This document shows positions 1 to 12,097 of a stretch of DNA of 12,097 bases, piece by piece. Numbering within the stretch: the first letter of the stretch is position 1; each line of letters begins with the position of its first letter. A program made the position numbers and the translations under genes. Under the pieces are notes generated by a model. The model saw only the letters and a list, made by a program, of their open reading frames with translations, did not search any database and was not told where the DNA came from. Origin of the DNA: a virus. The DNA lies in the UHGV virus genome UHGV-0124803. One strand, 5' to 3'.

Positions 1-49
1 ATGTTTGCAGTTTCAAGGCATTTTCTTAAATCTGCTGGTGATGCCCTGT

Positions 50-700
50 TCATGCAGCACGCTCCCGCCCCTGGATGTCTGTTGGTGACAGCGGAGCATT
101 GCTGAATGCATTTGTTAATCCGCCAATATCCAACGCGTATCCAGGGTGTAGTTGCACTGCCGGGTCTTCGCACTGATTACCCCAAACATCAAAGCCATGA
201 GACGTCTGGCGGGCGAACAGTTCAATGCGAGAAACATCGCCTAATAATTGCACAAGTTTTTCACGAACGATATCTGGCTTTCTTGAATGCTCAAGCCGCG
301 GTGCGGTAAATGACTGAACGATCCCTGCATTAATGCGCGTAGGTAGTTTTCCCTTTACCGCAAACAGGCAATCTTCACTATTGGCGCGAGTCATGTGTCC
401 CATACCCATAACCAGTTTATCTGGTTGTCGACTACCACATTTTATCCACGTGAAGCCCTTCATCGTCATCAGACGGAATCCCCAGGCTTCAACAACTTTT
501 AGTGCTTCGAGTGGTTGTGTTGGCACCCACCACATGGCCAACAGACAGTTTTCATCGGCCAAATCCCATACAGGAAGGCGGCAGATATCCAGCACACTCA
601 TAACCGGATATTTAAAACCGGCACCGCGATTACCATCTGCGGCTTTGTCCCGGTATACCCAGGGTGGATCTGCATAGATTAGTGTGTATTTCTTAGTCAT
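50..700 (-). CDS. MT-A70 family N6-adenine DNA methyltransferase (phage orphan methylase)
   Basis: ORF 50..712; DPPW catalytic motif (YADPPWVY) close to the N-terminus. ATG at 700 (MTKKYT) preferred over the GTG at 712; the upstream ORF stop (693-695) overlaps it. Confidence 0.75.
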   Translation of the reverse strand: MTKKYTLIYADPPWVYRDKAADGNRGAGFKYPVMSVLDICRLPVWDLADENCLLAMWWVPTQPLEALKVVEAWGFRLMTMKGFTWIKCGSRQPDKLVMGMGHMTRANSEDCLFAVKGKLPTRINAGIVQSFTAPRLEHSRKPDIVREKLVQLLGDVSRIELFARQTSHGFDVWGNQCEDPAVQLHPGYALDIGGLTNAFSNAPLSPTDIQGRERAA

Positions 701-941
701 AAACCACCCCACAACATCCTATGCCGCTATAGTCGCCACGGCGAAGGCCGTTACCTTTTGTGATACATTGGTCCCTGCGAACCGCGATCCTTGCACGTTC
801 AACATCACCAGAAGCAACATCCATACACTGAAGCCAAAGGTGAGCGGCAATGCGGAATTGCCCTTTTTTCTCTCTTTCAATCGCGCGTTTTTCGATCTCT
901 ATCGCCGCAGGAGTAACGGCGACAATCTTTGACGGACTGCG
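693..941 (-). CDS. Hypothetical small protein (83-99 aa; start ambiguous: ATG 941, ATG 959 or GTG 992)
   Basis: ORF 693..992 in the same orientation between the AlpA-like gene and the methylase; stop overlaps the methylase start; AAGG 6 nt upstream of ATG 941. No recognisable motif. Confidence 0.4.
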   Translation of the reverse strand, partial: RSPSKIVAVTPAAIEIEKRAIEREKKGQFRIAAHLWLQCMDVASGDVERARIAVRRDQCITKGNGLRRGDYSGIGCCGVVYD

Positions 942-1101
942 CATTGAAACCTTATTCATGTGATATTTTTCAAGTCGGCTTAACTTTCTCACTTAATCCA
1001 ACCCTCTCTGAAAATTAATGCCAGCAGATAAAGCCATGCTGAAACAGAGGCCAGGAATAAGTACCATCCTGACCATTTGCTCCAGTGCCTTAGCAGCGCA
1101 C

Positions 1102-1350
1102 TCATGCAGCGTTGCTCACGGGACGATATACACGTTGCTGAACAGGAGGCTTTTTACCCTGGAACTCTGCCGGGCTTGCTGCCTGACGTTCATCAAGCCA
1201 ACGCTCAACTTCATCACGGTTCCATGCGCAGCGTTTATCGGTGATATACCAGCGTTTAGGAAATTCCCCTGCGCGCTCCATACGGTCGATAGTGCTCCAT
1301 GACAGTGGCACCACCGCCAGGAGTTCCTTCTTACCTAATGCACCTTTCAT
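1102..1350 (-). CDS. AlpA-family helix-turn-helix regulator / excisionase-like protein
   Basis: 82-aa ORF with the AlpA pattern: HTH (LLAVVPLSWSTIDRMERAGEFPK) followed by a W...E..ERWL segment; RBS AGAGAGG upstream of the ATG. Confidence 0.6.
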   Translation of the reverse strand: MKGALGKKELLAVVPLSWSTIDRMERAGEFPKRWYITDKRCAWNRDEVERWLDERQAASPAEFQGKKPPVQQRVYRPVSNAA

Positions 1351-1372
1351 AAATACCTCTCTTGGTTGCAGT

Positions 1373-1391
1373 GCGGCGCGCGTGGCGCCGC
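1373..1391 (-). other. GC-rich hairpin between recT and the AlpA-like gene (7-bp stem GCGGCGC/GCGCCGC, 5-nt loop), no U-tract
   Basis: Perfect inverted repeat read directly from the sequence, 9 nt downstream of the recT stop on the minus strand; lacks the T-run of an intrinsic terminator. Confidence 0.3.
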
Positions 1392-1399
1392 GGTGGTGG

Positions 1400-2422
1400 T
1401 TACTCGAATTCTGGACGCATATCGTTAAGCGTCATCATGAATTTTTGGTGATATTCATCACCGAGCTTTTCAGCCATGGTGTTAATTTCATTTTCAGCGC
1501 GCTTGAACATCGTTTTTGCATCTTCAGCAGATGGATCTAGGCTATTAAGTATCGCGATGATATATTCTCGAGCTTCTTCTCGTTCTGAATCTGAAATTGG
1601 CGACAGGTGTTGACGCTCATCGTCAACTACGGAATATTCACCAGTGATAACAGCTGCGTTATCTTGGCTAAGTCCAGCTTCAGCGCGCTCATCCATAACA
1701 ACAGCCTTCTGCATTTCAATAGAAACAGGAAGATATTTGAACAGTCGGCGAATTACTGTTTTTTTAGCCATCTCATCGAAGTGATCAACCCATGGGCCAC
1801 TGCTACCGGCTTTGCTCAGTGCACGAACTTTCTCAACGTCTGCCCGGCTCATAACTTCAAATTGCACTCCGCCATCTTTCAGTCGTGCAACGGCGTAAAC
1901 GTGCGTTAATTCTCCGCGGTCACCTGTTTCGCAAGGTAAATGCTCGAGCGTTTCTTCCAGGCCGTATGAGTAGCTGAATTTGTCGTTTGTATGTACGGTA
2001 CGAGCCGAGATACTCAGGATCTGCCCAGAGCGGCGGGCAAGGTCAATCATTCCGCGATAGCCGATAATCAGCTGTGCTTCTGTAGATACGGTTTCCCATC
2101 TTCCATTTACTTTCTGGCGTTTGTCGAACGGTATCAGGTAAGCGTGTCCAAGAGCTCCGCCTGGTTCAAGACCCAATTGGGCACATTGCATAATTGCCCC
2201 CAGGAAGCTGGCTTGGTCGCATGATGCAAGTTTTGGAACCTTTCGGATCTCTGTGGTTGCTATGCGCGCCAGACGGTCTGCTGTCATGTGCTTTGGAAGT
2301 GCCAAAGCCATCTGAGCTTTAATTTTTGGGTCTGCCAGAAGTCCGGCCAGAGTTGTTGGTTTCTCATTATGATGTGCAACTTGGTTACCGGTAGCCGCTG
2401 CCTTAAGTGCATTGATAGACAT
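1400..2422 (-). CDS. recT: RecT-family single-strand annealing recombinase with an acidic C-terminal extension
   Basis: 340-aa ORF with RecT-type core motifs (GYRGMIDLARRSGQ, LIPF); strong RBS AAGGAG 7 nt upstream of the ATG; 9 nt after the exonuclease stop. Confidence 0.9.
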   Translation of the reverse strand: MSINALKAAATGNQVAHHNEKPTTLAGLLADPKIKAQMALALPKHMTADRLARIATTEIRKVPKLASCDQASFLGAIMQCAQLGLEPGGALGHAYLIPFDKRQKVNGRWETVSTEAQLIIGYRGMIDLARRSGQILSISARTVHTNDKFSYSYGLEETLEHLPCETGDRGELTHVYAVARLKDGGVQFEVMSRADVEKVRALSKAGSSGPWVDHFDEMAKKTVIRRLFKYLPVSIEMQKAVVMDERAEAGLSQDNAAVITGEYSVVDDERQHLSPISDSEREEAREYIIAILNSLDPSAEDAKTMFKRAENEINTMAEKLGDEYHQKFMMTLNDMRPEFE

Positions 2423-2431
2423 TTTTTCTCC

Positions 2432-3331
2432 TTACTTCATTCTGAAGACGCGTTGTGTCGTTGTTGTTTTGAATTTTTCGAATAACTCAGGGTGTACTGA
2501 CTGGAATAGCTTCTGGTCGAATCTGTTGCTGATCTGAGATTTCCATGTGCAGAGCGGCTTTCCGTCCAGGGTCAGGACTGAGTGCTCTTGCATGTACATC
2601 TTCAGCTTCTCTTCTGATATAGCTATTTCTTCTTCCAGTGATTTTCTGCGTGACTTCATGTCTCGTAGATCGTTGAATAGTGCGAGTGCCTTTCCGTCAG
2701 CCTCGATACTTGTCCCGGCATCTTTCTCAAACATCAGCGATACATCGCTTACGCTGGTAGCTTCCGGCGGGTTAAGATTTTTCACTCGGTCCCAGAAAGC
2801 GATTTCTTTTTCTAAGATCGCCTGGATAGTTTCTTCATCACGCTCAACCCGATAGATTCGGAAGTCGTCGCCACCGATAAGCACACCGAAAACGCATACC
2901 TGTTTGTTTGTAACCATCAACCCGTGCATGGCCTGGGCCGTGTAATGCACAGGAATTGCATCTGTCTGGATTTCTCCCCATTCTTTGGCTTTGAACGGAC
3001 TAACTGTTTTGATCTCAATGTTCTCGCCTGACGCTGCTTCTGCATCGATCTCAGCTGCAATAAAATCGTAATCACGGTGGATATAGCGGTTTCCGCGATG
3101 AACGATTTCCATCCCTGTTTCCTCAGAAAGCAGGTCTATTACGTATGGCTCCATACGCTGGCCACGCGTGAAAACTTTCTGCTTGCTTGGGTCTACTGGT
3201 TTGACACGTGGCTGGACCTTATCCAGATAAACCTCAAGCGGGGTGCGCCATGGGCTAATTCCAAGAATCCCTGCAACATCGCTTCCTCCGATGTATTTTG
3301 TTCTATCCATGATTCCAGCGTTCCGCATCAT
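2432..3331 (-). CDS. YqaJ-type (lambda-exonuclease-like) recombination exonuclease
   Basis: 299-aa ORF; N-terminal YqaJ signature KYIGGSDVAGILGISPWRTPLEVY; the ATG at 3331 overlaps the upstream stop (ATGA coupling), with an alternative internal ATG at 3310 (MDRTKY). Paired with recT downstream. Confidence 0.85.
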   Translation of the reverse strand: MMRNAGIMDRTKYIGGSDVAGILGISPWRTPLEVYLDKVQPRVKPVDPSKQKVFTRGQRMEPYVIDLLSEETGMEIVHRGNRYIHRDYDFIAAEIDAEAASGENIEIKTVSPFKAKEWGEIQTDAIPVHYTAQAMHGLMVTNKQVCVFGVLIGGDDFRIYRVERDEETIQAILEKEIAFWDRVKNLNPPEATSVSDVSLMFEKDAGTSIEADGKALALFNDLRDMKSRRKSLEEEIAISEEKLKMYMQEHSVLTLDGKPLCTWKSQISNRFDQKLFQSVHPELFEKFKTTTTQRVFRMK

Positions 3332-3627
3332 GCCGCGTCCCTCTGCCCATCAAGCTGATCCGCCAGCTCCCAGCGGGCGATAATTGCCATTGCCTCGCGC
3401 CGGTAGGCATCCATCAGTTCTTCGAACTCAGGGCTGTCTTTAGCAGCCTCCAGCACTTCCTGACGAACGCCTTTGCCTGTTACAACGTCGAAAGTTGAGG
3501 CCAGTTGATGAAGCCGGATACTCTCAATCAGTTCAACTTGTCGGTCATATAGCTGTTCTGACAGGCGGTAGTCCTTGTCGAATGCCAGCATGATTTTTTG
3601 AAGATTTTTCTGCTGATTAACGTTCAT
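3328..3627 (-). CDS. Hypothetical protein (99 aa) heading the recombination operon
   Basis: ORF 3328..3642; the ATG at 3627 (MNVNQQ) has a strong RBS GGGAGGG; stop overlaps the exonuclease start. No motif recognised. Confidence 0.55.
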   Translation of the reverse strand: MNVNQQKNLQKIMLAFDKDYRLSEQLYDRQVELIESIRLHQLASTFDVVTGKGVRQEVLEAAKDSPEFEELMDAYRREAMAIIARWELADQLDGQRDAA

Positions 3628-3629
3628 TA

Positions 3630-3782
3630 TCAGCCCTCCCATATCTCGTTATCGTTGGCCACATCGCGAGCTTCTTTGCTGACGAAAGCCCACTTAATGC
3701 CTTCCTGTAAGGTGCGGAACTTCCAGCTCATGAATCCGCATGCAGTAACGCAGTACCAACCGTTGATGATTTTCCACTGCAT
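3630..3782 (-). CDS. Hypothetical small protein (50 aa, Trp/Cys-containing), first ORF after the PL-like promoter
   Basis: Not in the ORF track (under 60 aa). Read by hand: MQWKIINGWYCVTACGFMSWKFRTLQEGIKWAFVSKEARDVANDNEIWEG; RBS GAGGT about 7 nt upstream of the ATG at 3782; stop 2 nt before the next gene start. Confidence 0.3.
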   Translation of the reverse strand: MQWKIINGWYCVTACGFMSWKFRTLQEGIKWAFVSKEARDVANDNEIWEG

Positions 3783-3788
3783 AACTTG

Positions 3789-3793
3789 TTACC
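3789..3793. promoter_or_regulatory. Operator half-site (TTACC) over the RBS of the first leftward ORF
   Basis: Single pentamer matching the half-site of the palindromic operator; could equally be chance. Confidence 0.2.
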
Positions 3794-3801
3794 TCGGCCT
3801 G

Positions 3802-3816
3802 TTACCGCTGAGGTAA
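3802..3816. promoter_or_regulatory. Operator site OL-a (TTACCgctgaGGTAA)
   Basis: Perfect 15-bp palindrome TTACC-N5-GGTAA just downstream of the putative -10 of the leftward promoter. Confidence 0.6.
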
Positions 3817-3844
3817 TGATTATGCGTATTTGGTTTGGTGTCAA
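3817..3844 (-). promoter_or_regulatory. PL-like leftward early promoter (-35 TTGACA at 3844..3839; -10 uncertain, CATAAT or TAATCA at about 3824..3817)
   Basis: Consensus -35 hexamer on the minus strand flanked by two operator palindromes, upstream of the recombination operon; the -10 and its spacing are not clear-cut. Confidence 0.4.
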
Positions 3845-3863
3845 TAGATATGAGTTAAAAAAA

Positions 3864-3878
3864 TTACCCGTAAGGTAA
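3864..3878. promoter_or_regulatory. Operator site OL-b (TTACCcgtaaGGTAA)
   Basis: Perfect 15-bp palindrome, centre 62 bp from OL-a, upstream of the -35. Confidence 0.6.
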
Positions 3879-3888
3879 TCTATCTGGC

Positions 3889-3914
3889 AATAAAAAAGCC
3901 GCCATGAGGCGGCT
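3889..3914 (-). terminator. Rho-independent terminator after the repressor gene
   Basis: 7-bp GC-rich stem AGCCGCC/GGCGGCT with a 4-nt loop, followed on the minus strand by TTTTTTATT; about 20 nt downstream of the repressor stop. Confidence 0.6.
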
Positions 3915-3935
3915 TACTTACTGAAAACTATAGTT

Positions 3936-4520
3936 TTATTGTTTGCTTTTTTCGTTCTGGTTGATGACAAATTCAATGTAACTTTCGATCTTTGCTTTCT
4001 CGGTTTCGGGTAACAATGCGTAGCGTGAGCGGTCATAGTTGATAGTCGCAGGGTCGTGCGGGTGAATCAGTAGTTCATATCCGTGACGCCCGAATGCGGA
4101 TGCAACATTCTCCAGGGTGGAAATGGAAACGCTGACCTCATTGTTTAACAGGCGGCTGATTGTCACCTGGGCGACGCCGGATGCGCGGTGAAGTTTTCCC
4201 TGCGTTGAAAGGTCGCGGCTTTCGCTCATCCAGCGTTCCAGGTTGTGAGCCGCCAGCTGACCAATGTCGCTTGGGCCGACAGGCTGAAAACCTTCCTGAG
4301 AAAGCGAGCGATCGATATCAAGCCAGTTACGTGGTTTATTGGCGGCAGCTTCAATTTTTCGCGCAACCTGGTCGCCGATAACCTTCTTGCCAAGAGCCCA
4401 GCGGTTTACCAGATTTGCCTGAGTTCCAAGTTTTTCTGCCATCCGCGTCTGAACACCATTGAATTCACGGTCGATCAAGTCGTTGAGATTTTGCCTGCGG
4501 ACGTCCTGGATACTTTTCAT
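3936..4520 (-). CDS. Immunity repressor (CI-like function), tandem HTH, no S24 peptidase domain
   Basis: 194-aa ORF divergent from the cro-like gene; two HTH-like segments (around residues 22-45 and 115-145, the second XRE-like: GVAQVTISRLLNNE...SISTLENVASAFG); no Ala-Gly/Ser-Lys autocleavage module visible; flanked by operator palindromes on both sides. Confidence 0.7.
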   Translation of the reverse strand: MKSIQDVRRQNLNDLIDREFNGVQTRMAEKLGTQANLVNRWALGKKVIGDQVARKIEAAANKPRNWLDIDRSLSQEGFQPVGPSDIGQLAAHNLERWMSESRDLSTQGKLHRASGVAQVTISRLLNNEVSVSISTLENVASAFGRHGYELLIHPHDPATINYDRSRYALLPETEKAKIESYIEFVINQNEKSKQ

Positions 4521-4575
4521 TTTCTGGAAAATCGCCTCATATATGAATCAGTAGATGATTCAATTTAAAGCAATA

Positions 4576-4590
4576 TTACCCAACAGGTAA
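4576..4590. promoter_or_regulatory. Operator site OR-a (TTACCcaacaGGTAA)
   Basis: Perfect 15-bp palindrome in the divergent repressor/cro intergenic region. Confidence 0.6.
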
Positions 4591-4620
4591 ATGCACCCCA
4601 TAGGTAACTATCCTTGATTT

Positions 4621-4649
4621 TTGTTACCTTATGGGTGAATATTTATTAT
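4621..4649 (+). promoter_or_regulatory. PR-like rightward early promoter (-35 TTGTTA 4621-4626, 17-nt spacer, -10 TATTAT 4644-4649)
   Basis: Sigma70-like hexamers at 17-bp spacing, about 25 nt upstream of the cro-like ATG; operator OR-b lies in the spacer. Confidence 0.45.
4625..4639. promoter_or_regulatory. Operator site OR-b (TTACCttatgGGTgA, one mismatch)
   Basis: Near-perfect palindrome overlapping the PR-like -35 and spacer; centre 49 bp from OR-a; an extra GGTAA half-site at 4603-4607. Confidence 0.5.
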
Positions 4650-4674
4650 CTGAAATAAATATCAGGCAATAGCT

Positions 4675-4905
4675 ATGAGCGATAACGGACATTTCGATTT
4701 CAAAAAGCACTGGCTTGCACTTACTCCGGATGAGCGTGAAGCCTTCGCACAGGAAGCCGGAACGACGAGTCACTATATCCAGACTCACTTAACAGGTAAG
4801 CGCAAAATGCCAGGTAAGGTATTGATGAATGGGCTTTTTAAAGCCTGTAAAACAAGACAATGGCTGCGCTCAAAAGCAGAACTGGCATACTTCTTCTACT
4901 CATGA
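4675..4905 (+). CDS. Cro-like small DNA-binding regulator
   Basis: 76-aa ORF divergent from the repressor, first gene after the PR-like promoter; HTH-like segment (EREAFAQEAGTTSHYIQTHL). Confidence 0.6.
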   Translation: MSDNGHFDFKKHWLALTPDEREAFAQEAGTTSHYIQTHLTGKRKMPGKVLMNGLFKACKTRQWLRSKAELAYFFYS

Positions 4906-4927
4906 TATCCAGCCACAACCCTCTGTA

Positions 4928-4949
4928 GACCGCCATCCGGCGGTCTTTT
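4928..4949 (+). terminator. tR1-like intrinsic terminator after the cro-like gene
   Basis: 7-bp stem GACCGCC/GGCGGTC, loop ATCC, followed by TTTT; about 23 nt downstream of the cro-like stop. Confidence 0.5.
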
Positions 4950-4960
4950 CATATCTATTC

Positions 4961-4975
4961 GTACCTCAAAGGTAA
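4961..4975. promoter_or_regulatory. Degenerate operator-like site (gTACCtcaaaGGTAA)
   Basis: 14 of 15 positions match the palindrome; lies between the tR1-like terminator and the next gene. Confidence 0.3.
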
Positions 4976-5053
4976 TAAAAAACCAAATCTGGTTGATCAA
5001 ATTTTCCAATTGTGCAAAATAGCCAATATCAATAACAAAAAGGGGCGGAAAAA

Positions 5054-5266
5054 TTGAAGATAGTAACCAGAATGGAGGCCGCAAAAGCCGGGTTAAATCG
5101 CTATTTCACAGGAAAGCGGTGCCGTCACGGCCATCTCTCTGAAAGGTATGTTCTGAACGGAACATGTGTTGAATGTGCAATGAATAGCGCCAACCGCCAT
5201 CGTAATGAATTTGCTTGTGCACTAAAGAGTGCAAGAGGGGAAACCTATGGCAAGCAGCTGGATTAA
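5054..5266 (+). CDS. Small Cys/His-containing protein at the cII position (possible zinc-binding regulator); start TTG 5054 or ATG 5072
   Basis: ORF between the cro-like and O-like genes; pattern C-x-H-x-H ... C-x2-C (CRHGH ... CVEC); GGGG 8 nt upstream of the TTG; no resemblance to lambda CII recognised. Confidence 0.4.
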   Translation: MKIVTRMEAAKAGLNRYFTGKRCRHGHLSERYVLNGTCVECAMNSANRHRNEFACALKSARGETYGKQLD

Positions 5267-6077
5267 GGTTGAAGTTATCACTCCTGATAAACCTGAAATT
5301 TTTCAGATAGCAGAAATTCTGGGTATTGATCCAGATGCTGTTCTTGGAAAGCTGGTTCGTATATGGGCATGGGCTGACCAGCAAACAATAGACGGTAACG
5401 CTGGCAGCGTTACAAAAGGAGTACTTGATAGACTCGCTTTTATTACAGGATTTGCTGACGCCCTCATTAGCGTCGGATGGCTTGCTTATCATGACGGCAA
5501 ACTAATTCTTCCAAACTTTGAGCGACACAATGGAGAATCATCGAAAAAACGTGCACTTACGAATAGAAGAGTGGCAGAGCATCGAAAACGAGTAACGCAA
5601 AAAGTAACGCCAACAGCGTTACAAAAGGAGTTACCAGAGGAAGAGGAAGAGGAAGATATATATAAAACCCCACACATAGCACACGCGCGCGAGAGTGATC
5701 CGACCAGTGAAGCGAACGGTACGCCGTTGCAGGTGGCAGAACCTGCATTTCTGGATGGCCTGAGTGAACCTATTGGGAAATTTCCGATGATCGATGGCTG
5801 GCATCCATCGCCGGATTTTCGACGGCGTGCTGCGCTGTGGGGAACGGCCCTGCCGGAACCGGAATTTACACCTGCTGAACTTGCTGCATTCCGGGATTAC
5901 TGGATGGCTGAGGGCAAAGTGTTCACGCAGGTTCAGTGGGAACAAAAATTCGCCAGGCACGTAAATCATATCAGGGGAAAATCAAAAAACGTCGGGAAAA
6001 GCGATGAGCTTGACTGGAATAACACTGACTGGATAGAAGGGGTGTGGGATGAAATCAACTCCAGAACTTCTCAATGA
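5247..6077 (+). CDS. Replication initiator / replisome organiser (O-like function) with DnaT-like C-terminal domain
   Basis: ORF 5229..6077; ATG at 5247 has RBS AGAGGGGA; acidic linker (EEEEEED); the C-terminal W/F-rich segment resembles the DnaT-type domain; sits immediately upstream of and overlapping the P-like gene; contains the candidate origin repeats. Confidence 0.65.
   Translation: MASSWIKVEVITPDKPEIFQIAEILGIDPDAVLGKLVRIWAWADQQTIDGNAGSVTKGVLDRLAFITGFADALISVGWLAYHDGKLILPNFERHNGESSKKRALTNRRVAEHRKRVTQKVTPTALQKELPEEEEEEDIYKTPHIAHARESDPTSEANGTPLQVAEPAFLDGLSEPIGKFPMIDGWHPSPDFRRRAALWGTALPEPEFTPAELAAFRDYWMAEGKVFTQVQWEQKFARHVNHIRGKSKNVGKSDELDWNNTDWIEGVWDEINSRTSQ
5590..5668. repeat. Candidate replication origin: GTAACGC iterons plus GA-rich and AT-rich tract inside the O-like gene
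   Basis: GTAACGC at 5591-5597 and 5602-5608 (11-bp phasing), inverted GCGTTAC at 5615-5621; the 18-mer CAGCGTTACAAAAGGAGT recurs at about 5405 and about 5614 in different reading frames; followed by GAGGAAGAGGAAGAGGAAG and ATATATATAAAA. Confidence 0.4.
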
Positions 6078-6825
6078 GTACGATCGCTTACGTGAGCATG
6101 GTGTTGCTGTGCATGAAGAGCGGCGTGACAGCAATGGCAAAAAGGAGCAGGTCGCTAGAATTTTCAATGAACTATTTGTCCAGTTACAGGCTGCATTTCC
6201 TGCAAGCGTTTCGACCATAAGGGAGCAGAACAAACTTAATGAATTCCGTAAGCAATGGATGCTTGCGTTTCTGGAGAATGGGATCACTACAATGGAACAG
6301 GTTAACGCTGGTATGCGCCACGCCCGCGCCAGTGAATCTCCGTTCTGGCCGTCGCCAGGGCAATTTATCAAGTGGTGTAAAGACAGCAAGATGGTTCTTG
6401 GCGTCACCATTGACGATGTGATGGCGGAGTTTCACCGGTACAGCAAGGAAAAAAGTTTATATCCTGGTGGTCCCGAAAGATTCCCGTGGCGGCATCCGGT
6501 TATGTACTGGGTCGTATGTGATACCCGCCGTGCAATGTATCAGCGCCAGCTTAGCGAGATTGAGGTTGAGAAACATGCGCGCAGGCTGCTTGATGATTGG
6601 GCGAAAAAGGTGGCTTCCGGACAGCAGATACCCGATCCGGTGATCAGCATACAGGCAAAGCCAGAACCCATGAGTACGCCTCCGGACACAGGGAGAGACG
6701 TTTACCATCCACCAGGGCGAAGTTTCGGGTGTATGCCTAACGCCGCTACCCTGGGGGGAATAACACCGGCGCAGTGGCTGATGGAGGAATACAGGCGGGG
6801 AAAGGCGGCAGGATTTATCAAGTAA
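6049..6825 (+). CDS. Lambda P-family replication protein (helicase loader)
   Basis: 258-aa ORF; the segment FPASVSTIREQNKLNEFRKQWMLAFLENGITTMEQVNAGMRHAR...PFWPSPGQFIKWC closely matches lambda P as I recall it; overlaps the O-like gene by 29 nt. Confidence 0.85.
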   Translation: MKSTPELLNEYDRLREHGVAVHEERRDSNGKKEQVARIFNELFVQLQAAFPASVSTIREQNKLNEFRKQWMLAFLENGITTMEQVNAGMRHARASESPFWPSPGQFIKWCKDSKMVLGVTIDDVMAEFHRYSKEKSLYPGGPERFPWRHPVMYWVVCDTRRAMYQRQLSEIEVEKHARRLLDDWAKKVASGQQIPDPVISIQAKPEPMSTPPDTGRDVYHPPGRSFGCMPNAATLGGITPAQWLMEEYRRGKAAGFIK

Positions 6826-6830
6826 TACCA

Positions 6831-6850
6831 GCGCGATAGCGCATTTTTTT
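6831..6850 (+). terminator. Weak terminator-like element after the P-like gene (GCGC-gata-GCGC then ATTTTTTT)
   Basis: Only a 4-bp stem but a 7-T run immediately downstream of the P stop; low confidence. Confidence 0.3.
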
Positions 6851-6855
6851 ACGTC

Positions 6856-6883
6856 TTGACAATTACCTGTTAGGTAATAAAAT
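6856..6883 (+). promoter_or_regulatory. Third repressor-gated promoter (-35 TTGACA 6856-6861, 16-nt spacer, -10 TAAAAT 6878-6883)
   Basis: Consensus -35 and 5/6 -10 at good spacing; an operator palindrome fills the spacer and a second lies 62 bp downstream at the RBS of the first accessory gene. Confidence 0.5.
6863..6877. promoter_or_regulatory. Operator site O3-a (TTACCtgttaGGTAA)
   Basis: Perfect 15-bp palindrome exactly between the -35 and -10 of the third promoter. Confidence 0.6.
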
Positions 6884-6924
6884 ATTCTAAACTCTATTGA
6901 TTTCGTGTCTTATGTGGTTTTTAA

Positions 6925-6939
6925 TTACCTCTGGGGTAA
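6925..6939. promoter_or_regulatory. Operator site O3-b (TTACCtctggGGTAA)
   Basis: Perfect palindrome 62 bp (centre to centre) from O3-a, the same spacing as the OL pair; 4 nt upstream of the ATG at 6943. Confidence 0.6.
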
Positions 6940-6942
6940 ATC

Positions 6943-7287
6943 ATGAGAAAACAGATACAGGCTCTTGGTCGACTCAAAACAGGCCAGATGAACAAAACAG
7001 AATCTGCGTATTGCCAGCACCTTGAGCAGCGTAAACGTGCAGGGGAAATCGCCTGGTATCGATTCGAGGGTATCAAGCTGCGGTTAGCTGACAACACGTT
7101 CTATACGCCCGATTTTGCTGTGATGCTCGCCACCGGCGAGATGGAACTGCACGAAGTGAAAGGTTTCTGGACCGACGATGCCAGGGTGAAAACCAAAGTC
7201 GCCGCAGATCAGTATCCGTTCCGAATCATCGGGGTAACGGTTAAGCCAAAGAAAGCAGGTGGTGGCTGGAACATCGAAGAGTTCTGA
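6943..7287 (+). CDS. DUF1064-like putative PD-(D/E)xK nuclease
   Basis: 114-aa ORF; pattern KTESAYCQHLEQRKRAGEI...YTPDFAV...ELHEVKGFWT matches my recollection of the DUF1064 / restriction-endonuclease-like fold (D ... E-x-K). Confidence 0.5.
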   Translation: MRKQIQALGRLKTGQMNKTESAYCQHLEQRKRAGEIAWYRFEGIKLRLADNTFYTPDFAVMLATGEMELHEVKGFWTDDARVKTKVAADQYPFRIIGVTVKPKKAGGGWNIEEF

Positions 7288-7348
7288 ATCGACGATCTTT
7301 TTAGTTATCAATGTAATCAATAAGTTATGTGGATAAGCGAGGGTAAAG

Positions 7349-7831
7349 ATGGAAAGTAATATCAAAGGGTTAGTTGCCGCCGGGCATGAGATGGCTTCGG
7401 AACTGAAAGCAGAATGTGGTGCCGTTGATATGCGCAGTGTGGCAAAGCTGATCAGCGATTTGGCAACGCAACTGGAAGTTCAGTTGGTGCGTGCTAATGC
7501 GCTGGCGGCGGAGAATGCGGCGTTTAAGGACATAAACGCATGGTGCAAAACAGATGCGTTCAGCAACATGTATCGTGAGTTCAAAACAGCAGAAGCAGTT
7601 GGATGTTGCAACATTGACTGTATGCATGACGCAATGGTGGTCGCAATTATGCACGCACCAGAAGCGCCAGCCACCGATGTTTTTCTGGCTGAAATTGAAC
7701 GCAAAGCAATCCGCAAATTCATTAACAGCATTGAACACATCCTGCGTGACAAGCTGTATCCGTATGACACCGAAGAGATGCTTGAGGCTATGCGTATTTT
7801 TCTGGAAGAACAGGGAGGCGAGCAAAAATGA
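7349..7831 (+). CDS. Hypothetical protein (160 aa)
   Basis: ORF with RBS GAGGG 5 nt upstream of the ATG; stop overlaps the next start (ATGA); antisense ORFs here are Cys/His-rich and lack RBSs. Confidence 0.55.
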   Translation: MESNIKGLVAAGHEMASELKAECGAVDMRSVAKLISDLATQLEVQLVRANALAAENAAFKDINAWCKTDAFSNMYREFKTAEAVGCCNIDCMHDAMVVAIMHAPEAPATDVFLAEIERKAIRKFINSIEHILRDKLYPYDTEEMLEAMRIFLEEQGGEQK

Positions 7832-8145
7832 CGATCACAAAACAACGTGTAGAAGAAATCATATCCCGCATTGAAATGTATGGGCATGGTGCAGGGTATA
7901 CCGCTGACGAGGTTTATGACCTGGCTGTACTGGCGCTGAATTTATCAAATATCGCAAACCTGAAGCGATACGAGCTTGATATGGATGGTTGTGACTCGTT
8001 CGGTCAGGATTGTGGAGCTGACATGACTGAAGATTCTGATGGCGATTATGTCCTGTTTGATGACGTGGTTAAGTTGTTTGAGTTTGATACAACCACTCAG
8101 AAGCCAGAAAGCCCAGCAAAGGAGGCAACCAGTGAGCGAAATTAA
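7828..8145 (+). CDS. Hypothetical acidic protein (105 aa); N-terminal module shared with the 9111 protein
   Basis: RBS AGGGAGG upstream; N-terminus MTITKQRVEEIISRIEMYG resembles MTTITKERLLTIKQWRETYG of the 9111..9941 product. Confidence 0.5.
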   Translation: MTITKQRVEEIISRIEMYGHGAGYTADEVYDLAVLALNLSNIANLKRYELDMDGCDSFGQDCGADMTEDSDGDYVLFDDVVKLFEFDTTTQKPESPAKEATSERN

Positions 8146-8818
8146 TTACCAGGCACTGCGTGAGGCGGCGGAACGTGCAATTCCGGCAATGGAACGCCTG
8201 TTAATGTTGCCAGTTGATGATGATTTGTTAAGTGAACAGGAACTTAAAGATTACGGTGTGGATATTGATGCGCTCAACGCCTTCAAATTTCTGACCGGAC
8301 CAGAAACCGTGCTGGCACTACTGGATGAACGGGAAAGGAACCAGCAATACATCAAACGCCGCGACCAGGAGAACGAGGATATTGCGCTTACGGTTGGGAG
8401 GCTGCGCGTTGAGCTGGAAGGCAAAGACAGCAAAATAGCCAATCTTACCGCCGAACGCGATGCTCTTCGTGAAGGTGAGATGGGCGACGCTAGGCATAGC
8501 AACACACGGGCCGCAGCTGATATCTACTTCCAACTGGTCGAGGAGTGCGAAATTCCTGCTGGCGGATCTCTGGTCGAGTACGTTGACGATATGCGCGAGA
8601 AGCTGGAAGCCGCAGAGAAGCGCATTGCAGAGTTAGAAAGTGGTTCTGAGGCACAAAAGTTAGTTGAAGCAATCATTGTTGCGATAGAAAACGAACAGGA
8701 AAGGCTTTTTGATGAAGATTACCTAATGGATTCGAAAGAATGCATTGACGTAATTCGTGAAGAAGTAAAGCGATGGAATGATTCCCGTGCCGCTGGCATT
8801 CGCATCAAAGGAGAGTGA
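8132..8818 (+). CDS. Ea22-like family protein (coiled-coil)
   Basis: GTG start at 8132 with RBS AAAGGAGG 6 nt upstream (the track ORF starts further upstream at 8039); segment LLDERERNQQYIKRRDQENEDIALTVGRLRVELE matches my recollection of prophage Ea22-like proteins. Longer than lambda Ea22, so a homologue rather than the lambda gene. Confidence 0.55.
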   Translation: MSEINYQALREAAERAIPAMERLLMLPVDDDLLSEQELKDYGVDIDALNAFKFLTGPETVLALLDERERNQQYIKRRDQENEDIALTVGRLRVELEGKDSKIANLTAERDALREGEMGDARHSNTRAAADIYFQLVEECEIPAGGSLVEYVDDMREKLEAAEKRIAELESGSEAQKLVEAIIVAIENEQERLFDEDYLMDSKECIDVIREEVKRWNDSRAAGIRIKGE

Positions 8819-8819
8819 T

Positions 8820-9107
8820 ATGGCAACTTTGCAGGAATTAATCGACCTGACGCCAGAACAGGAAAAAGCGTGGAATCGCCTTGTGAAGGCTGTAAAGGAT
8901 TTCAGGGCAGCCGGAGGAAAGTTTTATAGCGTCCTGGACACGCTGAGCGCATACAACGGCGAGCACGTTGCCAGCATTGATAACGATAAGGGCTACCACA
9001 CTGCAAGCGTCTATATGCCTAGCATTGATGCGCCAGGGCTAACCAGTTGGGCTGATGATTGGCACGGCATCACGCTGAAAGATGGCGTTGAAGTGGATGA
9101 GGACTAA
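8820..9107 (+). CDS. Hypothetical protein (95 aa)
   Basis: ATG at 8820 with RBS AAGGAGAG 5 nt upstream, immediately after the Ea22-like stop; no recognisable motif. Confidence 0.5.
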   Translation: MATLQELIDLTPEQEKAWNRLVKAVKDFRAAGGKFYSVLDTLSAYNGEHVASIDNDKGYHTASVYMPSIDAPGLTSWADDWHGITLKDGVEVDED

Positions 9108-9110
9108 CAC

Positions 9111-9941
9111 ATGACCACTATTACCAAAGAGCGACTACTGACAATCAAGCAGTGGCGCGAAACATACGGACCTGGTAGCAACGTTGTACTGCCAGCAGAA
9201 GAAGCGGAAGAGCTGGCACGGATTGCGCTGGCATCGCTGGAAGCAGAGCCTGTTCTGTATCAGTCCTGCACTCGCCCCACCTGGAATAGCGGTGTTCCGT
9301 GGACGGAATGGAAAGAACGTAGTCGTGAGGGCTACGAAGACGATTTGCGCTTTACAGACACGCCTGACCATGCCGGTTGGATAAACAAATGCCGAAAACT
9401 ATATACCACTCCGCCAGCGCCGGTAATACAGGCTGATGTCGCGCAAGCAATTGAAAATCTCAAGCAGAAGTTAGTGGAATGCAATCGCTATAACTACTGC
9501 GCAGATGCAGTTAAAGGCGTAGAGGATGCCTGCCGTGCTGTTAGCTATAGCCAAGCCGACAATCAACCAGCATCTGGCAACCAGGCTGCCGAATCCAATC
9601 GCAGTAATGAGTGGACCGGCAATCCTGATATTGATAACGCCATCATCATGCTCGACCGCATAGATACGCTGGAAAATTGCGATGATGACCGTATTGAGGC
9701 GGTTAAGGCTGTTTTGCGTAGACTGGCTGGCAACTATCCGGTAACTCCGGATGGTTGGATAAGCTGTAGTGAGCGAATGCCGGATAAGTTAATTCCGGTA
9801 ATGGTCATGTATGAAGACGGTGAGATGTGGTCTGCAATGTGGAATGGCAATCGCTGGGATGATGGCACCGAATATCCGGATCCGCACTCAGTTACGCACT
9901 GGCGTGAAATGCCAGCAGCACCGCAGCAGGAGGTGAAGTGA
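9111..9941 (+). CDS. DUF551 domain protein
   Basis: 276-aa ORF; C-terminal GWISCSERMPDKLIPVMV ... VTHWREMPAAP matches the DUF551 pattern as I recall it; RBS GAGGA upstream. Confidence 0.55.
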   Translation: MTTITKERLLTIKQWRETYGPGSNVVLPAEEAEELARIALASLEAEPVLYQSCTRPTWNSGVPWTEWKERSREGYEDDLRFTDTPDHAGWINKCRKLYTTPPAPVIQADVAQAIENLKQKLVECNRYNYCADAVKGVEDACRAVSYSQADNQPASGNQAAESNRSNEWTGNPDIDNAIIMLDRIDTLENCDDDRIEAVKAVLRRLAGNYPVTPDGWISCSERMPDKLIPVMVMYEDGEMWSAMWNGNRWDDGTEYPDPHSVTHWREMPAAPQQEVK

Positions 9942-10162
9942 TGGACTCCTTCGCGAAATATACGATTATTGACTGGATAGCCTTCCTTCAGGTTTTGCTC
10001 ATCTGGTTTTATATGGCTTACAGGAGTGGACAGTGGATTGTCAGTGTAGCCTGTAGCAAGGGATGGCGTTGGTGGAACCGAAAGAATAAAAAGCGCTGGC
10101 CTTGGATTCGTTTTACGAAGCATTCAATCTTAACAGTCTTCAGCCTGGTTCTGTCGTTGTAG
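9941..10162 (+). CDS. Small hydrophobic (probable membrane) protein, 73 aa
   Basis: ATG overlaps the upstream stop (TGATG); hydrophobic N-terminal helix (IIDWIAFLQVLLIWFYMAY), basic W/R/K-rich middle, hydrophobic C-terminus. Confidence 0.35.
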   Translation: MDSFAKYTIIDWIAFLQVLLIWFYMAYRSGQWIVSVACSKGWRWWNRKNKKRWPWIRFTKHSILTVFSLVLSL

Positions 10163-10216
10163 TCACCACTCAAAGCGGCATGACGATACAAATTCACAAG
10201 CCAAAGGAGGAAGGTC

Positions 10217-10501
10217 GTGGCTAACCTGCAACTTGCCGTTAAAGGTGAATACTTCGATGCCATGATTCGCGGAGAGAAAACGGAAGAGTATCGCCTGTGT
10301 AATGACTACTGGAATAAGCGAATTATGTTCCGCGAGTATGACCGCCTGATTATCACAAAGGGATATCCGAAGCGCGACGATTCCAGCCGCAGAATTGACG
10401 TCCCGTATGACGGATATGAAATCAAGACAATCACACATCCCCACTTCGGTGATAAACCGGTAAAGGTGTTCGCGATAAAGGTGAATATCGGCAATGAATA
10501 A
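10217..10501 (+). CDS. ASCH/PUA-like domain protein (DUF3850-like), 94 aa
   Basis: GTG start with strong RBS AAAGGAGG 6 nt upstream; pattern LQLAVKGEYFDAMIRGEKTEEYRLCND resembles ASCH/DUF3850 proteins as I recall them. Confidence 0.5.
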   Translation: MANLQLAVKGEYFDAMIRGEKTEEYRLCNDYWNKRIMFREYDRLIITKGYPKRDDSSRRIDVPYDGYEIKTITHPHFGDKPVKVFAIKVNIGNE

Positions 10502-10573
10502 CAATCCTCGCACTCGCGGGGATTTCTTTTATCTGAACTCGCTACGGCGAGTTTTGTTTTATGGAGATGATAA

Positions 10574-10741
10574 ATGCACTTCCGAGTCACAGGTGAATGG
10601 AATGGAGAACCATTCAACAGAGTTATCGAAGCAGAGAACATCAATGACTGCTATGACCACTGGATGCTGTGGGCGCAGATAGCACATGCAGACGTAACCA
10701 ATATTCGAATTGAAGAACTGAAAGAACACCAAGCCGCCTGA
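10574..10741 (+). CDS. 55-codon small ORF upstream of xis (resembles my recollection of a lambda orf-55)
   Basis: Hand-read ORF MHFRVTGEWNGEPFNRVIEAENINDCYDHWMLWAQIAHADVTNIRIEELKEHQAA with RBS GGAG 7 nt upstream; the stop is embedded in a terminator hairpin; not in the ORF track. Confidence 0.4.
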   Translation: MHFRVTGEWNGEPFNRVIEAENINDCYDHWMLWAQIAHADVTNIRIEELKEHQAA

Positions 10742-10753
10742 TGGCGGTTTTTT
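10733..10753 (+). terminator. Intrinsic terminator hairpin immediately upstream of xis
   Basis: Stem GCCGCC/GGCGG(T), loop TGAT, followed by TTTTTT. Confidence 0.5.
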
Positions 10754-10754
10754 C

Positions 10755-10768
10755 TTGCGTGTAATTGC
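10755..10768 (+). promoter_or_regulatory. pI-type CII-activated promoter box (TTGC-N6-TTGC: TTGCgtgtaaTTGC)
   Basis: Tetrad repeat with 6-bp spacing placed so that transcription would start inside xis; this is the lambda pI arrangement as I know it. Confidence 0.5.
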
Positions 10769-10780
10769 GGAGACTTTGCG

Positions 10781-10999
10781 ATGTACTTGACACTTCAGGA
10801 GTGGAACGCACGCCAGCGACGCCCAAGAAGCCTTGAAACAGTTCGTCGATGGGTACGCGAGTGCAGGATATTCCCTCCTCCGGTTAAGGATGGAAGAGAG
10901 TATCTGTTCCACGAATCAGCGGTAAAGGTTGACTTAAATCGACCAGTAACAGGTAGCCTTTTGAAGAGGATCAGAAATGGGAAGAAGGCGAAGTCATGA
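10781..10999 (+). CDS. xis: Excisionase Xis (lambda-type)
   Basis: 72-aa product MYLTLQEWNARQRRPRSLETVRRWVRECRIFPPPVKDGREYLFHESAVKVDLNRPVTGSLLKRIRNGKKAKS, which I recognise as lambda Xis; 23-nt overlap with int as in lambda. Confidence 0.95.
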   Translation: MYLTLQEWNARQRRPRSLETVRRWVRECRIFPPPVKDGREYLFHESAVKVDLNRPVTGSLLKRIRNGKKAKS

Positions 11000-12047
11000 G
11001 CGCCGGGATTTACCCCCTAACCTTTATATAAGAAACAATGGATATTACTGCTACAGGGACCCAAGGACGGGTAAAGAGTTTGGATTAGGCCGAGACAGGC
11101 GAATCGCAATCACTGAAGCTATACAGGCCAACATTGAGTTATTTTCAGGACACAAACACAAGCCTCTGACAGCGAGAATCAACAGTGATAATTCTGTTAC
11201 GTTACATTCATGGCTTGATCGCTACGAAAAAATCCTCGCCAGCAGAGGAATCAAGCAGAAGACTCTCATAAATTACATGAGCAAAATTAAAGCAATAAGG
11301 AGGGGTCTGCCTGATGCTCCACTTGAAGACATCACCACAAAAGAAATTGCGGCAATGCTCAATGGATACATAGACGAGGGCAAGGCTGCGTCAGCCAAGT
11401 TAATCAGATCAACACTGAGCGATGCATTCCGAGAGGCAATAGCTGAAGGCCATATAACAACAAACCCGGTCGCTGCCACTCGCGCAGCAAAATCAGAGGT
11501 AAGGAGATCAAGACTTACGGCTGACGAATACCTGAAAATTTATCAAGCAGCAGAATCATCACCATATTGGCTAAGACTTGCAATGGAACTGGCTGTTGTT
11601 ACCGGGCAACGAGTTGGTGATTTATGCGAAATGAAGTGGTCTGATATCGTAGATGGATATCTTTATGTCGAGCAAAGCAAAACAGGCGTAAAAATTGCCA
11701 TCCCAACAGCATTGCATGTTGATGCTCTCGGGATATCAATGAAGGAAACACTTGATAAATGCAAAGAGATTCTTGGCGGAGAAACCATAATTGCATCTAC
11801 TCGTCGTGAACCGCTTTCATCCGGCACAGTATCAAGGTATTTTATGCGCGCACGAAAAGCATCAGGTCTTTCCTTCGAAGGGGATCCGCCAACCTTTCAC
11901 GAGTTGCGCAGTTTGTCTGCAAGACTCTATGAGAAGCAGATAAGCGATAAGTTTGCTCAACATCTTCTCGGGCATAAGTCGGACACCATGGCATCACAGT
12001 ATCGTGATGACAGAGGCAGGGAGTGGGACAAAATTGAAATCAAATAA
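10977..12047 (+). CDS. int: Tyrosine integrase Int (lambda-type)
   Basis: 356-aa product starting MGRRRSHERRDLPPNLYIRNNGYYCYRDPRTGKEFGLGRDRR, essentially lambda Int as I recall it; catalytic-region motifs HELRSLSARL and LGH...SQYRDD...W present. Confidence 0.97.
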   Translation: MGRRRSHERRDLPPNLYIRNNGYYCYRDPRTGKEFGLGRDRRIAITEAIQANIELFSGHKHKPLTARINSDNSVTLHSWLDRYEKILASRGIKQKTLINYMSKIKAIRRGLPDAPLEDITTKEIAAMLNGYIDEGKAASAKLIRSTLSDAFREAIAEGHITTNPVAATRAAKSEVRRSRLTADEYLKIYQAAESSPYWLRLAMELAVVTGQRVGDLCEMKWSDIVDGYLYVEQSKTGVKIAIPTALHVDALGISMKETLDKCKEILGGETIIASTRREPLSSGTVSRYFMRARKASGLSFEGDPPTFHELRSLSARLYEKQISDKFAQHLLGHKSDTMASQYRDDRGREWDKIEIK

Positions 12048-12097
12048 TGATTTTATTTTGACTGATAGTGACCTGTTCGTTGCAACAAATTGATAAG
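12044..12097. other. attP P' arm: Int arm-type sites (P'3, P'2, P'1) and IHF H' site; window ends before the core
   Basis: Window sequence is the reverse complement of the lambda P' arm as I recall it: arm-type sites at 12044-12053, 12055-12064, 12065-12074 (rc AGGTCACTAT and relatives) and an IHF-like TATCAATTTGTTG on the minus strand at about 12084-12096. Confidence 0.8.

Follow-up and report, generated by a model that had tools for sequence, protein, structure and literature searches.

The unusual gene order of an Escherichia coli prophage contig is a seam at a 541-base identical repeat, most probably introduced during assembly

Two kinds of E. coli prophage are relevant to the locus described here. 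Prophages of the Uetakevirus group (phiV10, epsilon15, vB_EcoP_ZX5) lie at the 3' end of guaA, and their integration at this site through a P4-like integrase has been published (PMC9782041). The phiV10 genome is 39.1 kb long, with the attP core attgagtgggaatgatt. The native order in this group starts with int, followed by a leftward methylase-RecT-YqaJ-repressor block and then, rightward, by the cro-like, DnaT-like, P, DUF1064, Ea22, DUF551, gp55-like, terminase and late genes. By contrast, lambdoid prophages inserted at lambda attB (the defective prophage of E. coli B/BL21, HK106, L033 and L043) have the order DUF551, DUF4752, ASCH, orf55, xis, int, attL and ybhC in common, a block situated distally in their leftward PL operon (with cI, N, recombination genes, Ea22 and others). 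In the stretch of 12,097 nucleotides analysed here, hereafter the window, this block follows Uetakevirus replication genes instead.

The window was traced, at 100% identity over its length, to contig NODE_27_length_82348_cov_11.1 of assembly ERZ784339 in ENA, which has a k-mer coverage of 11. A first-pass annotation had described, on one strand, cro-like, O-like and P-like genes, Ea22/DUF551 accessory genes, xis and int, and, divergently, a YqaJ/RecT/methylase operon. ORF order and Pfam matches bore out the first block on the plus strand and the second on the minus strand, the latter with an MT-A70 methylase and a two-HTH repressor, as well as the statement that the window contains no Q, lysis or morphogenesis genes. 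The accompanying reading as a single lambda-type genome with rearranged modules was not supported; instead, two ordinary prophages are spliced exactly within the window. The canonical lambda module order, which groups int, xis, ea and recombination genes in the leftward operon and has nin, Q and lysis genes after O and P, is absent from the window and was found in the lambdoid parent prophages when gene orders were compared. The odd gene order is thus a seam at a 541-base identical repeat, and not a new phage genome layout.

The left part (1-9784) matched L018, a canonical prophage at guaA within a 670-kb contig, without a single mismatch. It begins with a phiV10-like early operon on the minus strand (50-3782), 100% identical to L018 and arranged in the same order in phiV10 and 17 other prophages. 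Pfam identified in it an MT-A70 methylase (50-712), PerC (693-944), an AlpA-like protein (1102-1350), RecT (1400-2422) and the YqaJ exonuclease (2432-3331), to which the ORF list adds two small ORFs (3328-3627 and 3630-3782). On the same strand lies the two-HTH repressor (3936-4520; Pfam HTH_3/HTH_26), which is the homologue of gp40 in the phiV10 annotation and has a terminator-like hairpin downstream (3915-3896). The plus-strand genes start at the cro-position gene (4675-4905), which had no Pfam match and is recognised by its position and by the phiV10 annotation as the gp41 homologue; the hairpin scan placed a terminator-like structure after it (4927-4946). Next come a DnaT-domain protein (5229-6077; Pfam DnaT, 8.9e-18) and a lambda-P-family protein (6049-6825; Phage_lambda_P, 1.7e-55). 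The former had been called O-like; Pfam gave the DnaT domain and no lambda O match. The native Uetakevirus accessory cluster follows (6943-9107, plus strand), with DUF1064 (6943-7287), an unnamed 160-aa ORF, an unnamed 105-aa ORF, Ead/Ea22 (8132-8818) and a 95-aa ORF preceding DUF551; the DUF1064 and Ead/Ea22 genes were assigned by Pfam. Canonical guaA prophages carry identical genes in the same order, and then DUF551, a gp55-like gene and terS, followed in L018 by the portal gene.

In Uetakevirus phages, Ea22/DUF551 accessories lie natively in the rightward operon after the DnaT-like and P genes, with the terminase genes next. The window shares with these prophages the divergent layout of both operons, and its early region runs collinearly with that of phiV10 and of 17 other prophage contexts. 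All 17 distinct phiV10-like contexts shown, which represent 48 contigs read, were canonical. Each left-arm protein was found in at least 1000 contigs, and exact-protein look-ups returned only long canonical contigs. phiV10 itself matches much of positions 1-9784 at 94-99% identity, the Ea22/DUF551 cluster being a different mosaic variant. An inverted block within a lambda-type prophage, or a decayed defective element, might be suggested by the superficial gene order. Such an origin is scarcely credible, as no inversion breakpoint was found, the left 9.8 kb run collinearly with intact, inducible-type Uetakevirus prophages at 100% identity (PMC9782041), and the genes for replication and recombination encode a DnaT-domain protein and RecT/YqaJ instead of lambda's O and Exo/Bet. 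The inversion of the immunity, replication and recombination block proposed earlier fails on the same collinearity. The parallel suggestion of a mosaic phage with late genes to the left of the methylase was partly right, the lysis genes of free phiV10 lying beyond the integrase on that side. In the source contig, a P4-type integrase lies just left of the window and is preceded by 43.8 kb of sequence. The guaA gene was observed at the left in L018 and in a sister contig (L023, see below), and the latter suggests that guaA also lies left of the integrase in the source contig.

Past position 9784, the window diverges from L018, and lambdoid xis-int and ybhC replace the gp55-like, terminase and structural genes. 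The right part (9244-12097) showed 0 mismatches to L033, a canonical lambdoid prophage at lambda attB; together with 7.8 kb of ybhC-pgl flank, it was likewise free of mismatches to L033, L039 and L043. Over positions 9244-12097, the identity of 100% to L033 and L043 compares with 97.9% to REL606. The int-proximal accessory genes of the lambdoid prophage (9941-10741, plus strand) comprise a DUF4752 pseudogene, which is truncated by a 1-bp deletion in an A-run near 10088, an ASCH gene (10217-10501; Pfam) and orf55 (10574-10741). Three terminator-like hairpins were located by the scan at 10503-10524, 10535-10554 and 10731-10750. The lambda-type excisionase Xis (10781-10999; Pfam Exc, 3.9e-41) and integrase Int (10977-12047; Pfam Arm-DNA-bind_1, 7e-33, and Phage_integrase, 5e-40), both on the plus strand, overlap at 10977-10999. 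They belong to a lambda Int/Xis module as judged from the arm-binding N-terminal domain and the Exc family, and the xis-int region is 97.9-100% identical to lambda-attB prophages.

An attP site had been reported beside int, a claim that did not hold. The window contains only the 50 nt of a partial lambda P' arm that follow int (12048-12097), and the 15-bp att core TTAGTATAAAAAAGC (window strand) lies at window-equivalent positions 12121-12135, 24 nt beyond its end. Neither the window nor the source contig contains a complete attP (P arm, core and P' arm) next to int. Beyond the core, the source contig continues with the bacterial B arm and ybhC, as read directly at positions 12938-13030 of L006, so that the site is attL and not attP. 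The right flank thereby showed the lambda attB context that the first-pass annotation had proposed to look for, attL adjoining ybhC.

The two parts overlap within a hybrid DUF551 gene (9111-9941, plus strand, 276 aa). Sequence comparison showed that the N-terminus of its product comes from the phiV10-type protein P0110 and its C-terminal DUF551 domain from the lambdoid-type protein P0107. The crossover or mis-join falls within the exact overlap at 9244-9784, where 541 bp are identical in both parents; when positions 9210-12097 were aligned to L033, mismatches occurred at 9221, 9226 and 9243 only. The repeat is approximately 10 times as long as a k-mer of 55. The breakpoint thus falls within an exact repeat that exceeds k in length, and each flank is identical to an independent locus (L018 and L033), as in an assembly chimera. 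The hybrid protein (P0106) was found in 1 contig of the whole collection, the source itself. As for its parents, P0107 was retrieved in 125 blocks, and the 24 contigs read showed two canonical contexts, while P0110 was found in 19 contigs, with 4 distinct contexts shown that were canonical or too short to contradict, the rest being grouped as similar. The contexts obtained through the rare proteins (hybrid DUF551 and truncated DUF4752) reach left as far as the P4-type integrase. In addition, partial DUF551 proteins ending at the same '…SCSERMP' boundary form a group of 19 member sequences (P0176), which shows that contigs end at this repeat in other assemblies too. The junction was replicated in no other assembly, which again is the behaviour of a chimera.

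A sister assembly was particularly informative. Contig NODE_37 of ERZ784130 (L023) carries guaA to the left, matches the window at 100% identity from 1 to 9298, and stops there, exactly 55 nt past 9243, the last base that distinguishes the parents. A stop 55 nt into the repeat is the signature expected of a graph branch at k=55, and such a branch implies that both repeat contexts coexist in the sister genome. Repeat-induced chimeric contigs from short-read de Bruijn assemblies resemble the window in their exact repeat longer than k, their canonical flanks, their confinement to a single low-coverage contig and the k-length overhang in a sister assembly.

In our view, the window probably unites two E. 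coli prophages that were integrated separately, as a chimera created by the de Bruijn-graph assembler rather than by the cell. An assembly chimera, which the first-pass annotation had itself raised as the outcome counting against its reading, is now favoured by the evidence. Positions 1-9784 would then represent the left end of a phiV10/epsilon15-like prophage, normally located at the 3' end of guaA with its own P4-type integrase, and positions 9244-12097 the distal end of a lambdoid PL operon, from Ea22 and DUF551 through DUF4752, ASCH, orf55, xis, int and attL to ybhC. With the DUF551 genes of both prophages carrying the same 541-bp segment, the contig would enter the repeat from the guaA prophage and exit into the lambda-attB prophage, that is, into DUF4752-ASCH-xis-int and not into the gp55-like gene and terminase as in Uetakevirus prophages. 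Such an entry and exit would place xis-int apparently "at the end of the rightward operon". The source genome presumably carries both prophages in canonical form. One point against an assembly origin is that SPAdes normally requires read-pair support to cross a repeat, and in the source sample the repeat was indeed traversed.

The geometry of the two loci bears on whether a cell could have produced the junction. REL606 has guaA and ybhC on one strand, with 1.76 Mb between them. The repeats are hence direct, and a cell could arrive at the observed junction by deleting 1.76 Mb; a real crossover between two resident prophages of one chromosome was rejected on these grounds. Another route, which we regard as unlikely but of some weight, is that a circular phiV10-like genome, induced or infecting, used the 541-bp homology in DUF551, and possibly its own RecT/YqaJ, to recombine with a resident lambdoid prophage. 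The whole phage would then lie inside the lambdoid prophage at lambda attB, as a composite double prophage with two integrases, and the window would be one of two hybrid junctions. The homology at the junction is perfect and long enough for RecA or RecT recombination, and the phage encodes both RecT and YqaJ. Furthermore, comparison of DUF551 proteins revealed natural domain mosaicism at exactly this boundary, which would make a real crossover there mechanistically easy; both this mosaicism and the RecT/YqaJ pair count against the assembly origin. The late genes of the phage could also lie in the left flank of the source contig. However, this route requires the contig to cross the repeat once more approximately 28 kb to the left, since 43.8 kb precede the integrase and only approximately 28 kb of phage remain. 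The hybrid is confined to one low-coverage contig, and in the sister sample this prophage lies at guaA and its contig ends in the repeat. Finally, given the three hairpins between ASCH and xis and a Uetakevirus arm devoid of N or cII function, the xis-int module would not obviously be expressed from the rightward operon.

If the join were real, it would be an intermediate in the formation of a mosaic phage, podovirus by lambdoid, caught in the act and flanked by a P4-type integrase on one side and by lambda Int/Xis/attL on the opposite side; it would offer a modest case of homologous recombination between podovirus and lambdoid prophages, involving no new mechanism. From a practical point of view, accessory genes of the Ea22, DUF551 and ASCH types are common, nearly base for base, to unrelated prophages of the same E. 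coli genome, and contigs often break or are wrongly joined at them. The repeat structure should thus be checked before a "non-canonical" prophage architecture is interpreted in draft or metagenomic contigs. The part of the initial observation that is real, namely ea-type accessory genes 3' of the replication genes and recombination genes on the opposite arm, has already been documented for Uetakevirus phages.

The arrangement was also sought elsewhere. A single locus covering 80% or more of the window was found in 0 of 5,426 complete E. coli genomes, which weighs against a real recombinant as well, and in 0 of 641 matching phage records; among the 30 best genome matches listed, none reached beyond approximately 10576. 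Among complete RefSeq E. coli genomes, none was found to carry the exact 541-bp repeat twice, the best match being 98%. A pattern scan of IMG/VR (left-specific 25-mer, 541 N, right-specific 18-mer) for the hybrid and both parental junctions gave 0 matches each and, having no positive control, was uninformative. These searches bear on a further explanation, a circulating mosaic lineage in which a Uetakevirus would have gained lambda xis-int-attP between its accessory and terminase genes and would lysogenise at lambda attB. The right flank is indeed a correct lambda attL beside ybhC, and exchange of integration modules is known among temperate phages. Such a lineage is nevertheless very improbable: its layout was seen in no phage record and no other contig searched, the opposite end has retained a P4-type integrase, and the lambdoid side matches resident prophages at 100% identity over 2.85 kb and onward for 7.8 kb into the chromosome, as expected if the right end simply belongs to a resident prophage. 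One phage, vB_EcoP-720R6, at first resembled a podovirus whose record ends with int; it is in fact P22-like, with the ordinary PL-operon order.

Base-by-base comparison revealed that the window is an exact concatenation of two parental prophages. Positions 1-9784 indeed show zero mismatches with L018, a canonical guaA prophage on a 670-kb contig which runs on into a gp55-like gene and terminase, and positions 9244-12097 show zero mismatches with three canonical lambdoid prophages at ybhC (L033, L039, L043), this identity extending 7.8 kb further into the flanking chromosome. The two parents thus share an exact 541-bp repeat (9244-9784) inside their DUF551 genes; within the aligned block, the window differs from the lambdoid parent only at 9221, 9226 and 9243. 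The resulting DUF551 protein (P0106) is a hybrid, its N-terminus being that of the phiV10-type P0110 and its C-terminal DUF551 domain that of the lambdoid-type P0107. The source contig, ENA ERZ784339 NODE_27_length_82348_cov_11.1, is 100% identical to the window.

The gene order proposed in the first-pass annotation was borne out by the ORF list and by Pfam scans of both strands. The minus strand carries an MT-A70 methylase (50-712), PerC (693-944), an AlpA-like gene, RecT (1400-2422), a YqaJ exonuclease (2432-3331), two small ORFs and a two-HTH repressor (3936-4520). On the plus strand follow a cro-position gene (4675-4905), a DnaT-domain protein (5229-6077), a lambda-P-family protein (6049-6825), DUF1064 and two unnamed ORFs, Ead/Ea22 (8132-8818), a 95-aa ORF, DUF551 (9111-9941), a truncated DUF4752 (9941-10225), ASCH (10217-10501), orf55, Xis (10781-10999) and a lambda-type Int (10977-12047). 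As the annotation had stated, no Q, lysis or structural genes were found in the window by either approach.

This order had been read as that of one rearranged lambda-type genome. However, database searches placed the window's left three quarters in the phiV10/epsilon15 group, genus Uetakevirus, phages which a P4-like integrase inserts at the guaA 3' end (PMC9782041). In phiV10 and E. coli guaA prophages, the left end consists of guaA, attL and a P4-type int; the leftward genes are DUF1382, methylase, PerC, AlpA, RecT, exonuclease and repressor, and the rightward ones cro-like, DnaT-like, P, DUF1064, the eae/Ea22/DUF551/DUF4752/ASCH accessory genes and a gp55-like gene, beyond which lie small and large terminase, portal and capsid genes. 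This layout was found in all 17 distinct prophage contexts (two exact-protein look-ups; 48 contigs read), and NODE_27 likewise carries DUF1382 and a P4-type integrase left of the methylase. Ea-type genes that follow O/P on the rightward strand, with recombination genes on the opposite arm, are therefore the native, already described Uetakevirus order, and an inversion or a defective lambda is exceedingly improbable. By all the features tested, the left part belongs to the Uetakevirus prophage group, apart from what comes after the DUF551 gene. Recombination modules are swapped in the leftward operon of guaA prophages: the module at 1403-3328, which has no phiV10 match (blastn, E 1e-10), encodes RecT (340 aa) and YqaJ (299 aa) as two proteins, whereas phiV10 has a single annotated 586-aa RecE/RecT fusion and other guaA prophages a DUF3799/RecT pair.

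The sequence from about 9900 on corresponds to the int-proximal end of lambdoid prophages integrated at lambda attB, of which the E. coli B/BL21 defective prophage is one example. In these, DUF551, DUF4752, ASCH, orf55, xis, int, attL and ybhC, in this order, form the distal end of the leftward PL operon, and the right part has the standard form of a lambda Int/Xis/attL end. The site previously labelled attP is in fact the attL of an integrated prophage: the window holds only 50 nt after int, and in NODE_27 the 15-bp lambda core, 24 nt beyond the window end, leads into the bacterial B arm and on to ybhC, ybhJ, ybhI, ybhH, ybhD and pgl. The DUF4752 gene is a pseudogene, cut to 73 aa (94 aa in REL606) by the loss of one base from an A-run near 10088; this frameshift is inherited rather than a sequencing error, since it is common to all lambdoid prophages of the lineage (L033, L043, L044, L046, L047).

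At the sequence level, the splice has all the hallmarks of a repeat-mediated chimeric contig, and the window is probably an assembly chimera: the assembler would have entered the repeat from the guaA prophage and exited into the lambda-attB prophage, creating an in-silico join. An exact-protein look-up over the whole collection found the hybrid P0106 in one contig, NODE_27, as against 19 contigs for P0110 and 125 index blocks for P0107, whose distinct contexts shown were all canonical save two fragments of insufficient length to judge. In 5,426 complete E. coli genomes, no single locus covered 80% or more of the window, none of the best 30 genome matches listed reached beyond about 10576, and the arrangement was absent from phage records in a database search; a circulating mosaic phage lineage is thus very unlikely. 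A contig of the same ENA batch and almost equal coverage, ERZ784130 NODE_37, has guaA on its left and is 100% identical to window 1-9298, where it ends, exactly 55 nt past the last base separating the two parents. Because a k=55 de Bruijn graph stops in this way where two paths merge, both repeat contexts must coexist in that genome, its assembler having left the repeat uncrossed. This break suggests a final assembly k of 55, the metaSPAdes default. It should be noted that ERZ784339, ERZ784130 and ERZ783578 (the last holding L043) belong to one accession range, with k-mer coverage of 11.1-11.6 and prophage sequence in common at 100% identity, which points to a single project and perhaps to repeated sampling of one strain. 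In REL606, guaA (2.55 Mb) and ybhC (0.79 Mb) share a strand and the orientation of each prophage is set by its flank, so that the two repeats are direct; a junction of guaA side, repeat and xis-int-ybhC would therefore mean the deletion of 1.76 Mb across the terminus region, which would not be viable given the essential genes of E. coli.

A real hybrid, formed by recombination of a circular phiV10-like genome with a resident lambdoid prophage via the 541-bp homology, would place the whole phage inside the latter. The phage does encode RecT and YqaJ, and DUF551 proteins show natural mosaicism at this same boundary; however, the hybrid junction is known from one contig only, the sister sample (ERZ784130) has a canonical guaA attL, and the contig would have to cross the same repeat again about 28 kb to the left, which makes such an event unlikely. 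Were the join real, three terminator-like hairpins (10503-10524, 10535-10554, 10731-10750) would lie between the rightward operon and xis-int; as they intervene, and as the Uetakevirus arm supplies no lambda N or cII function, expression of xis-int from the rightward promoter would be doubtful. None of these four readings calls for new biology.

DUF551 proteins (P0107, P0110, P0145, P0153) share a conserved N-terminal and middle part up to "…SCSERMP", beyond which the C-terminal domain comes in at least four unrelated variants, and this boundary seems to be a hot spot of recombination in the accessory regions of prophages. Of the 5,426 complete E. coli genomes, 2,573 carry DUF551 segments, in up to eight places per genome. 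Deposited partial DUF551 proteins (P0176, 19 members) end at the same boundary, and the repeat thus commonly breaks assemblies.

Elsewhere, a possible GTG start 12 nt upstream of the usual ATG would extend the methylase from 216 to 220 aa and make it overlap the PerC gene end, gene callers differing between assemblies (50-712 / 693-944). A 70-aa Cys/His-rich ORF (CRHGH…CVEC; 5054-5266), without a Pfam match, lies directly upstream of the DnaT-like gene, which it overlaps, and is the positional homologue of phiV10 gp42. Finally, a near-consensus sigma-70 promoter-like site (TTGACA-16-TAAAAT, 6856-6883, 11/12 matches) is located in the gap between P and DUF1064 (6826-6942), and phiV10 has an annotated terminator directly after P; the Ea22/DUF551 accessory genes may therefore be transcribed as a unit of their own, outside the replication operon.
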